Shown here one piece after another: positions 36,001 through 39,000 of a DNA stretch of 64,000 bases. Made by a program: the position numbers. Location: contig CBDBCF010000001.1 of the NCBI GenBank assembly GCA_965202985.1, positions 2,464,001 to 2,528,000 on the forward strand, read 5' to 3'. Position 1 is the first letter of the stretch. Each line of letters opens with the position of its first letter. The stretch comes from Longimicrobiales bacterium. Its GTDB lineage: Bacteria; Gemmatimonadota; Gemmatimonadetes; Longimicrobiales; Gaopeijiaceae.

Positions 36001-39000
36001 ATCGTTCTCATCGTCCGTGTCCTTTCGGAAATCGTGCCGGCCGGGGCTGGGCCCGCCGGCTCGGAGGTCGCGTTTTGGAGTGGGTGGTCAGTACTTCCGG
36101 ATCAGCCCGACCACTACCCCTTGTACTCGCACCGCGCCGGAATGTTCCAAAATGGGTTCCATGCGGGGGTTGGCGGGTTGGAGCCGGATTCGGTCGGGGG
36201 GCTCGCGGTAGAGCTTCTTGACGGTCGCGGCCTCGTCGTCCACCAGGGCCACGACGGTCTCGCCGTCCCGGGCGGTGTCGCGCTGCTCGACCACGATGTA
36301 GTCGCCGTCGCGGATCTGCTCGTCGATCATCGACTGGCCGGCGACGCGAAGCACGTAGTGGTCCCGGCCGGGGCGGACCAGCTCCTCGGGCACCAGTACC
36401 GTCTCGCGGTCCTCCACGGCCTCGATGGGCAGGCCCGCCGCCACCGTTCCCAGCAGCGGCAGCGACAGCGACACCGCCGGCTGCTCCGGGAAGCCGATGG
36501 AGCGGCTGCCCCGGTACGACTTCCGTATGTACCCCTTCCGTTCCAGATTGGAGAGGTGCTCGTGAACGGTGGCCAGCGAGGCGTACCCGAACTCGTCGCG
36601 GATCTCCTCGAAGCTGGGCGCGTAGTCGTTCACGTCGATGAAGTACCGCAGGAAGTCCAGGATCTCCTTCTGGCGCTTGGTCAGGGTCATCTCTCGTCTC
36701 CGCTTGGAGGCTGGGGAAGGTCGATCGGCGCGCCCCGAGGGCGAACCGAACATGCTCCGAACACGCTAACCGAAGTTATACCGAAGTGCAACCGAAGGAG
36801 CAACCCTCGTGGCGGTAGCGCGCGCGGAAGCGGGCATTCTGGAGCGGATCGTGGCGTCCAAGGAGGCCGAAGTGGCCGCCCTGCGCCGCAACCGGCGGGC
36901 GCTGGCCCGAGCGGCGGACGAGGCGCCTCCCGCGTTGCCGGTGCTGGGACCGGTGGCGGCGAATTCCCGGGTCTCGGTGTTCGCAGAGGTCAAGCGACGG
37001 TCGCCGGGAGCGGGCGCCATCGCCCCCGAGCTGGACCCGGTCGCCTTGTCGGCGGCGTACCAGGCCGGCGGCGCCGGGGTTGTCAGCGTGCTCACGGACG
37101 GGCCTTGGTTCGGCGGTTCGCTGGCGGACTTGGAGGCGGTGGCGCGGGCGCGGACGGTTCCCGTGCTCCGGAAGGACTTCGTGGTGGACGAGATGCAGGT
37201 GTTGGAAGCGCGGGCCGCGGGGGCGTCGCTGGTGCTGCTCGTCGTCCGGATACTGGGCGCCGCGCTGCTGGCCGACTTGCGCGCCATGGTGCACGATCTG
37301 GGCATGGCGGCGCTGGTGGAGGCGCACGACGAGGCCGAAGTGGACGCGGCGCTGGACGCCGGTGCGCGGCTGGTGGGGATCAACAACCGGGACTTGGCGT
37401 CGTTCGAGACGGGGCTCCAGGTGACGGAGCGCCTTGCGCCGCGGGTGCCCGAAGACGTGCTCGTGGTGTCGGAGAGCGGGATCACGGACGCTGCCGATGT
37501 GGCCAGGGTCGCGGCTGCGGGTGCCGCGGCGGTTCTGGTGGGCGAGGCGCTGGTGCGGAGCGGTGATCCGGCCCGCGCGGTGGCGGAGATGGCCGCCGTG
37601 TCCCGTCGGGCGGGCCGGGCGAGCACCCGGACGGCCATGAACGTCCGGACGACACGCACGCGTGCTCGGACGACCGCGGCCAAGGTGTGCGGCGTGACCA
37701 CGCCCCCAGACGCGGCGGCCGTAGCGGATGCAGGGGCGGACTACGTGGGCGTGGTCCTGTCCCCCGGATATGGACGCAGCGTGAGCCTGGGCAGAGCGCG
37801 ACGGGTGTTCGAGGCGTGCGCCGGCGCCCGCGTGCGCCGTGTCGGCGTCTTCGTGGACGAGGAGCCGAGGCAGGTGGTGGAGGCGGCGCGCGCGCTCCGT
37901 CTCGACGTGGTTCAGTTGCACGGGCGGGAGACGCCTCGTGTGGTTGCGGGCGTCGGCGCCGAAGGGCCTTGGCGGGTATGGAAGACGATCCACGCCGGGC
38001 TCGGCGCCGTCCGCTTGGCCGATGCGGTTGCCCCCTACGCAGGCACGGCCGACGGCGTCTTGGTGGACGCGTGGGACCCGAATTCGCCCGGTGGAACGGG
38101 GCGTGCCTTCGTATGGGACGGAGTGAGTCGGGAGGTGCGCCGGGCCGCCCCCGACGCCGTGTTCGTGGCCGCCGGCGGCATGACGCCCGCCAACGCCGCC
38201 CATGCGGTTCGCGCTCTGGCCCCCGACGTGCTGGACGTCAGCTCCGGCGTGGAGTCGGCGTTGCGCGCCGGGGACGCGCCCCCGAGCGCCAGGGGGGACT
38301 CGGCCGGCGCCGGGGATGCGGTCATGGCCAAGGACCCGGCCAAGGTGCGAGCGTTCGTCGAGGCCGTGCGGACGGCGGGGCGGGGGCAGTGAGCGGTGCG
38401 GGAGCCATGAGCGCACCGCAGGACGGACGCTTCGGCCCCTACGGCGGCCGCTACGTGCCCGAGACGCTGATTCCCGCCCTGGACGAGCTGTCCGCGGCCT
38501 ACCGGGAAGCCGTGGCGGACCCGGCCTTCCAAGCCGAGACGGACCGCCTGGGCACCGACTACGTGGGCCGTCCCACGCCGCTCTACCGCGCCCGTCGCCT
38601 GGAGGAGGCCGCCCGCACCGGCCCCGTGTACCTGAAGCGCGAGGACCTCAACCACACCGGCGCCCACAAGATCAACAACACCATCGGCCAAGCCCTGCTG
38701 GCCAAGCGCATGGGCAAGCCCCGCGTCATCGCCGAGACCGGCGCCGGGCAGCACGGAGTCGCCACGGCCACGGCCTGCGCGCTCCTGGACCTGGAGTGCG
38801 TCGTCTACATGGGCGCCGAGGACATGGAGCGCCAGTCCCTGAACGTGTACCGCATGGAGCTGCTGGGCGCCCAAGTGCGGCGCGTGGATTCGGGGACGCG
38901 CACCCTCAAGGACGCCACGAACGAGGCGCTCCGGGACTGGGTGACCCACGTCGCCCGCACGCACTACGTCATCGGATCGGTGGTCGGGCCGCACCCCTTT

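Follow-up and report, generated by a model that had tools for sequence, protein, structure and literature searches.

The lexA gene of a Longimicrobiales bacterium (phylum Gemmatimonadota) is preceded by a direct repeat of period 11, TTCG(G)-N6/7-TTCGG, and comparison of related sequences makes it highly probable that this repeat is the operator of the encoded protein, LexA1, throughout the class Gemmatimonadetes. The window analyzed is a stretch of 64,000 nucleotides of contig CBDBCF010000001.1 (hereafter C1). An initial annotation had proposed such a repeat as LexA operator, and this proposal, in which binding itself is predicted, is supported by held-out genes and by controls. As far as the literature was searched, it would provide the first SOS operator, with an outline of the regulon usable for its prediction, in a phylum widespread in soils and marine habitats. 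The SOS model remains unchanged, direct-repeat LexA boxes being known from several groups. The Gemmatimonadota box is very probably a LexA operator that is new for the phylum and modestly extends a known operator type.

Organization of the putative lexA promoter

LexA1 possesses the winged-helix domain, the Ala-Gly site and the Ser/Lys dyad of a cognate LexA. Alignment to the LexA proteins of E. coli and 3k2z revealed that its cleavage site Ala85-Gly86, Ser120 and Lys158 are intact, and helix 3 reads SLATVHEH (residues 38-45). In the gap of 118 nt between lexA and the divergent trpC, TTCGG occurs five times as a half-site when the lexA strand is read (Table 1). Tandem TTCG-N7-TTCG(G) repeats had been described earlier over the -35/-10 region of lexA, and two TTCGG-N6-TTCGG boxes do overlap the putative promoter. 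Box 1, with a matrix score of 21.1 (rank 2 in the genome), is separated by a single base from TAGCGT on the lexA strand. Each of the two hexamers agrees with the sigma-70 consensus at three of six positions in this genome, and a sigma-70 promoter scan of positions 36400-37000 called no promoter, the lexA hexamers included; TTGCAC and TAGCGT were assigned because the layout is conserved in relatives. The extra half-site TTCGG is rare in relatives, three box matches being present at 3/133 lexA loci.

Table 1. Features around lexA, with positions counted from the first letter of the window
Feature	Positions	Strand	Remarks
ORF between a trpD-like ORF and lexA	34444-35679	(-)	presumably resembles Rpn/YhgA-type transposase-like proteins; a similar ORF lies at C1:861604
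lexA (LexA1), 200 aa	36088..36690	(-)	TIGR00498 187 bits (cut-off 111); PF01726 and PF00717
Further TTCG	36742-36745	(-)	directly after box 2
Box 2, TTCGG-AGCATG-TTCGG	36746..36761	(-)	3' of the putative -10, over the putative transcription start
Putative -10 hexamer TAGCGT	36763..36768	(-)	TAnnnT at the same offset in relatives that fit the TTG-box-TA layout
Box 1, TTCGG-TATAAC-TTCGG	36770..36785	(-)	occupies 16 of the 17 bases of the putative -35/-10 spacer
Putative -35 hexamer TTGCAC	36786..36791	(-)	TTG before box 1
Extra half-site TTCGG	36792..36796	(-)	overlaps AAGGAG of the + strand
AAGGAG	36795-36800	(+)	likely ribosome-binding site of trpC
trpC-trpF fusion	36809..38392	(+)	first gene of trpCF-trpB and a following trpA-like ORF; NCBIfam TrpC/TrpF and TrpB matches
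Adjacent ORFs	40543-42390	(-)	taken by us to be a DarT-DarG toxin-antitoxin-like pair (macro-domain protein, DUF4433-like protein)

In the proposed mechanism, one LexA1 dimer would sit in the 17-bp spacer at lexA and another would cover the transcription start, and the two together would occlude the promoter and block RNA polymerase, leading to autorepression. Each other target would be repressed by one dimer. Upon DNA damage, RecA-ssDNA would trigger self-cleavage of LexA1 at Ala85-Gly86 via Ser120/Lys158, and the target genes would be released. The predicted regulon is small: it would include lexA and imuA-imuB-dnaE2 almost always, recA mostly, a UvrC-like GIY-YIG gene, dinB and DUF5131-tcmP operons depending on the lineage, and uvrA rarely. 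Self-regulation and a core of lexA, recA and translesion polymerases are described as a trait of known SOS regulons (PMC8565304), and the correspondence of this core supports the LexA-operator reading.

Conservation of the box upstream of lexA

The comparison covered 133 lexA loci drawn from about 160 matches, picked by rank and family spread and blind to the upstream DNA, from which one paralogue (L002) and one duplicate (L074) had been dropped. TTCGG-N6-TTCGG is present within 250 nt upstream of lexA in 120 of the 121 loci of class Gemmatimonadetes (70/71 loci of the order and 50/50 from five other families), which extends to the whole class an earlier observation on loci of three families. 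TTCG-N7-TTCG is found within 400 nt in all 121, and the box precedes lexA at all 80 named loci (Longimicrobiales, Longimicrobiaceae, Gemmatimonadaceae, Gemmatimonas sp. and Gemmatimonadota). In the other classes of the phylum, the TTCGG form occurs at none of 12 lexA loci and TTCG-N7-TTCG at 11, nearly always as TTCGC, the sole miss being a locus that ends at a contig edge. The operator had been regarded as a feature of the order; instead, the box is class-wide and a TTCGC variant exists in other classes.

The distance between half-sites is 11 in 129 of the 133 loci and 12 in one, so that the repeat forms a fixed-spacer dyad overlapping the putative lexA promoter, as expected for a LexA operator. 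Exactly two boxes lie within 250 nt in 118/133 loci, the gap between box 1 and box 2 ranging from 5 to 21 nt, and box 1 is flanked by TTG and TA in 105/133. Since the genomes are related and the counts are not independent, these numbers express conservation and not a p-value. In two assemblies, G036 (L070) and G062 (L051), lexA appears to be split into two matches, and the boxes are intact.

As controls, TTCG-N7-TTCG was encountered in 63 of 2660 dinucleotide shuffles and in 235 of 15440 windows of 250 nt from the same genome, and the 5-mer form in 25/15440. The bare word TTCGG-N6-TTCGG is not enriched genome-wide, with 31 pairs at distance 11 and between 11 and 32 at neighbouring distances that are out of frame, as would be seen if the repeat had arisen by chance or were an artefact of hand-picked seeds in a GC-rich genome. 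These null rates and the held-out genes described below contradict such an origin, which is refuted by the held-out test and has a negligible probability.

The divergent trpC has to be considered as well. It lies head-to-head with lexA, less than 400 nt away, in 103 of the 121 class loci, and among the lexA loci its start usually lies no more than about 35 nt from box 1 (23 nt for the trpC-trpF fusion of the window), so that any trpC promoter has to overlap the LexA boxes or be read through them. The repeats might accordingly be conserved for the trpC operon, as the site of a trp regulator or as the trpC promoter, with an incidental link to lexA. Nevertheless, in the other classes trpC is adjacent at 0/12 loci while the box persists at 11/12, and the box also precedes recA, imuA and dinB elsewhere, leaving this explanation with hardly any probability. 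A promoter pattern on the trpC strand was detected at only 2 of 61 loci.

Other genes preceded by the box

A matrix was trained on 235 lexA boxes of relatives, the genome under study being left out. The five seed loci of the initial annotation are all within the top 14 matrix sites of this genome, whose top site is inside a coding region; several further strong hits fall in coding sequence or are remote from any gene. Only 12 of 2673 genes, as called in the present analysis, score at least 17, and 9 of these 12 flank the five seed loci. The four sites listed earlier outside lexA were all recovered at their positions, namely at recA (C2:519773, first half-site TTCGC), at imuA (C1:2119878, first half-site TACGG), at the GIY-YIG gene (C1:1345227, reversed, one half-site TTCGT) and at C1:2057988, where a reversed site precedes a DUF5131 gene followed by tcmP.

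Among relatives, the mutasome imuA-imuB-dnaE2 carries a box with a score of at least 17 at 22/22 loci, a value reached by 12 of 856 windows of 4.5 kb. For recA, 43 of 51 class loci score at least 15, compared with 36 of 11028 windows of 350 nt. By family, the recA box was found in 10/11 (f1), 10/10 (f2), 3/9 (f3), 14/14 (f4), 6/6 (f5) and 0/1 (f6) loci, and in other classes of the phylum in 0/8. The previous count for recA in the family of the studied genome, 25 of 25, compares with 10 of 11 loci in our own sample. The first half-site at recA is often TTCGC or TTCGT; hence TTCGN-N6-TTCGG fits the targets better.

Further carriers are the DUF5131 gene (9 of 11 class loci, with one more at 14.3), the UvrC-like GIY-YIG gene (9 of 26 loci, two of which are probably not orthologues, with seven more at 12-15) and dinB (10/28 loci; 8/8 in f12 and 2/6 in f4). 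Together with recA and the mutasome, dinB places the box before the recA and error-prone polymerase genes that a LexA operator is expected to serve. Genes of excision repair and Holliday-junction processing, which are common but not universal SOS members, do not follow: uvrA has a box in 2/29 relatives' loci and ruvA in 0/30, with 1500 nt searched. In the genome under study, dinB, both uvrA genes, uvrB, recN and ruvA reach matrix scores of at most 7.5 and show no box, as had been remarked for dinB, uvrA, uvrB and recN. Two imuB loci were dropped from the dinB set, and from the uvrA set one locus whose upstream sequence spans 31 nt. Some single rows come from unpublished genomes: those for recA and the GIY-YIG gene from G002 and G030, those for uvrA and ruvA from G002, and two of the eight f12 dinB hits plus uvrA and ruvA rows from G168 and G169; no conclusion depends on them.

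Sites are found in both orientations: the GIY-YIG gene, DUF5131 and two recA genes have reversed ones. This bears on the possibility that the repeat, instead of being a repressor site, forms part of the promoter or binds an activator induced by damage; damage-induced activators of the WYL type are the PafBC/DriD-like proteins. The position of box 1, fixed between -35 and -10 at 105 of 133 lexA loci and likewise at dinB of f12, is what a promoter element would show. However, the second box sits 3' of the -10 at a variable distance, and the fifth base of the half-site changes along with the LexA helix (see below). Since sites can be reversed and the second box is movable, a polymerase element is disfavoured, and a role other than that of a repressor site appears improbable, though no search was aimed at such an activator.

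The dinB loci of f12 (L301-L309) possess a near-perfect TTGAC-box-TAnnnT promoter that ends just before the start codon, a layout that suggests leaderless or very short-leader transcripts. The DUF5131 gene is patchily distributed (10/61 genomes); DUF5131-tcmP with a box is found in the genome under study (G000 C1:2056206-2057988, L601), and among the DUF5131 loci L613-L623 the clear miss, L617, has a different downstream gene. For some strong box matches no close downstream gene was called (G000 C1:1959429, C1:153429 and C2:689645; also L661, L664 and L666), and these could be chance matches or mark small RNAs or missed genes.

Candidate binding proteins

A second LexA-like protein had been suggested as a possible binder of the box. 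This protein, LexA2, is encoded at C2:640179-640910, where its gene follows a gltX-like one. Its LexA DNA-binding domain contains the strictly conserved helix KSTKTVSE, different from that of LexA1, and a second LexA-like match exists in most genomes of the order. Its candidacy is nevertheless largely ruled out, and we consider it very improbable. No box was detected upstream of 21 loci (20 of LexA2 and one of another paralogue; best score 8.6), and the Ala-Gly, Ser and Lys residues are lost in the studied genome and its family. Moreover, when 10 genomes were tested for LexA2, 7 yielded none; all seven have boxes, and their single match is LexA1 (presumed LexA1 in G164). The box also stands before lexA genes named Patescibacteria. 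Across LexA2 loci (L002; L275-L293), the catalytic residues persist in f2, are eroded in f3 and have disappeared from f1; LexA2 does not combine an Ala-Gly site, a Ser/Lys dyad and a box of its own, as a cleavable SOS repressor would. LexA1 and the box occur together throughout, and LexA2 likely regulates some other site.

Comparison with known LexA operators

The LexA box of Alphaproteobacteria is the direct repeat GTTC-N7-GTTC (PMC3323433, PMC8565304). It shares with the Gemmatimonadota box the direct orientation, the period of 11 and a TTC core, and it was seen before lexA of Cereibacter and Sphingomonas in our controls. Nevertheless, GTTC-N7-GTTC is present in only 12 of the 133 Gemmatimonadota lexA regions, where the conserved letters are shifted to TTCGG; G precedes TTC in 6% to 49% of half-sites depending on the position, so the half-site is not GTTC. 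The recognition helices also differ, SKSGIHRL in Alphaproteobacteria versus SLATVHEH in LexA1. Mazon et al. in 2006 reportedly assigned the same GTTC-N7-GTTC box to LexA of Acidobacterium capsulatum.

The palindrome of Firmicutes is GAAC-N4-GTTC (PMC3323433). Written as CGAAC-N4-GTTC, it has the half-site core CGAA/TTCG in common with the Gemmatimonadota box but is an inverted repeat. The helix of Bacillus velezensis LexA, SSSTVHGHL, is similar to that of LexA1, with Gly at the position of Glu44. The Bacillus and the two alphaproteobacterial lexA controls were taken from plasmid searches, in which no close relative of the Gemmatimonadota LexAs was found.

Balneolaeota LexA recognizes another direct repeat, TTACACATATTTTWTACATA, and its small regulon comprises lexA and recA together with translesion polymerases and a radical SAM protein (PMC7739468). 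The direct repeat and the small regulon resemble the present case, whereas letters and period are unrelated to those of the TTCGG box.

Helix residue 44 and the fifth base of the half-site

Variation within the phylum points to a residue that may read the fifth base. Of 478 half-sites at loci with Glu44, 472 have G at this base; of 36 at loci with Lys in its place, 33 have C and none has G. The contrast between Glu and Lys inside the phylum is one evolutionary event. Residue 44 of LexA1 aligns to Glu45 of E. coli LexA, presumably a base-contacting residue. Chemically, it makes sense for Glu to face the C of CCGAA and for Lys to face the G of GCGAA. When LexAs behind the TTCGG pattern in metagenome and viral collections were aligned, all but one had Glu, the exception had Gln, and none had Lys.

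Named relatives, other than itself, of a Lys-type Gemmatimonadota LexA are Acidobacteria-named LexAs with 62-65% identity. Both share SSLATVHKHL, in which Lys replaces Glu44, and Lys thus occupies this position in the Acidobacteria-named proteins. Searches of viral collections for a Lys-type LexA yielded none with upstream DNA, and a viral scan for the TTCGC form gave 23 loci with lexA at none; on the DNA side the link between Lys and C is accordingly drawn from Gemmatimonadota. In Lys-type genomes, lexA was the only gene at which the TTCGC box was found together with a -10 (4/5 genomes) and recA has no box, so their regulon may be very small. Two of these genomes have TTCGG-plus-10 matches; these fall within a subtilase-like frame and were discarded. 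Two viral-collection loci (L521 and L522) encode a LexA-like helix SVSTAHYH, with Tyr, and have a reversed TTCGA-N6-TTCGA upstream, possibly a third pairing of helix and base.

Taken across phyla, these data allow a tentative proposal, to which we give somewhat less than an even chance: LexA of Gemmatimonadota, Acidobacteriota and Patescibacteria may share one direct-repeat mode of binding on a Firmicutes-like TTCG half-site, with the fifth base dictated by one helix residue (TTCGG for Glu44, TTCGC for Lys and possibly TTCGA for Tyr). Three distant phyla would then be linked by operator and recognition helix. The exchange of Glu for Lys offers a clean test of how LexA specificity changes, and, if true, a one-residue specificity switch, bearing on how a LexA dimer of two-fold symmetry recognizes a head-to-tail site, could be tested in cultured Gemmatimonadota. 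The patchy DUF5131-TcmP radical-SAM operons would likewise be under SOS control, tying an uncharacterised radical-SAM gene pair to DNA damage.

The box in Patescibacteria and in the literature

Metagenomes were scanned, blind to genes, for the promoter-plus-box pattern TTGAC-box-TAnAAT, which gave 60 loci, some of them near-duplicates and mostly of low G+C. The first ORF is lexA, dinB or recA in 22/60 (15 lexA, 6 dinB and 1 recA). Of 10 LexA clusters looked up, three bear the names Patescibacteria group, Ca. Dojkabacteria and Ca. Falkowbacteria, and one Ca. Muirbacterium; these Patescibacteria loci had been selected by the pattern itself. The lexA genes of the Patescibacteria group and Ca. Dojkabacteria are preceded by TTGAC-TTCGG-N6-TTCGG-TAnAAT, with the same letters as in Gemmatimonadota, and that of Ca. 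Falkowbacteria by a looser TTG form. The box occupies the same place in the promoter spacer and the helix is similar (T-x-H-E-H), but the phylum is different and these lexA loci usually have one box, in contrast to two in Gemmatimonadota. The LexA tree was built without Acidobacteria and an outgroup, and for this reason no donor or direction of transfer is claimed.

The Patescibacteria LexA operator of Sanchez-Osuna, Barbe and Erill (2017) is said to be a direct repeat, similar to that of Acidobacteria LexA. The Gemmatimonadota box is probably identical with this published motif, and the motif itself is then probably not new; figures or supplements of the work on Patescibacteria and Acidobacteria LexA may already show these letters. 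Table S2 of one study (PMC8565304) lists LexA of Collierbacteria and Parcubacteria as validated, with PMID 28618189 of 2017 as the source, and another cites the 2017 Patescibacteria study in its sentence on direct repeats (PMC7739468). The PMC8565304 supplement contains no entry for Gemmatimonadota. The operator had been called undescribed, which agrees with the literature searched (a scope that covers a minority of subscription papers) as far as a Gemmatimonadota LexA box is concerned, but does not extend to the letters, the same ones standing before Patescibacteria-named lexA.

In the metagenome loci (L401-L460), the promoter-plus-box pattern is also located before ORFs that are presumably DNA-methyltransferase-like or, in one case, nrdR-like, and before small ORFs of about 80-115 aa in low-GC loci. 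At two viral-collection loci (L477 and L487), a TTGACA-box-TACAGT promoter precedes an ORF named by eye as integrase-like, a possible case of SOS control of a mobile element.
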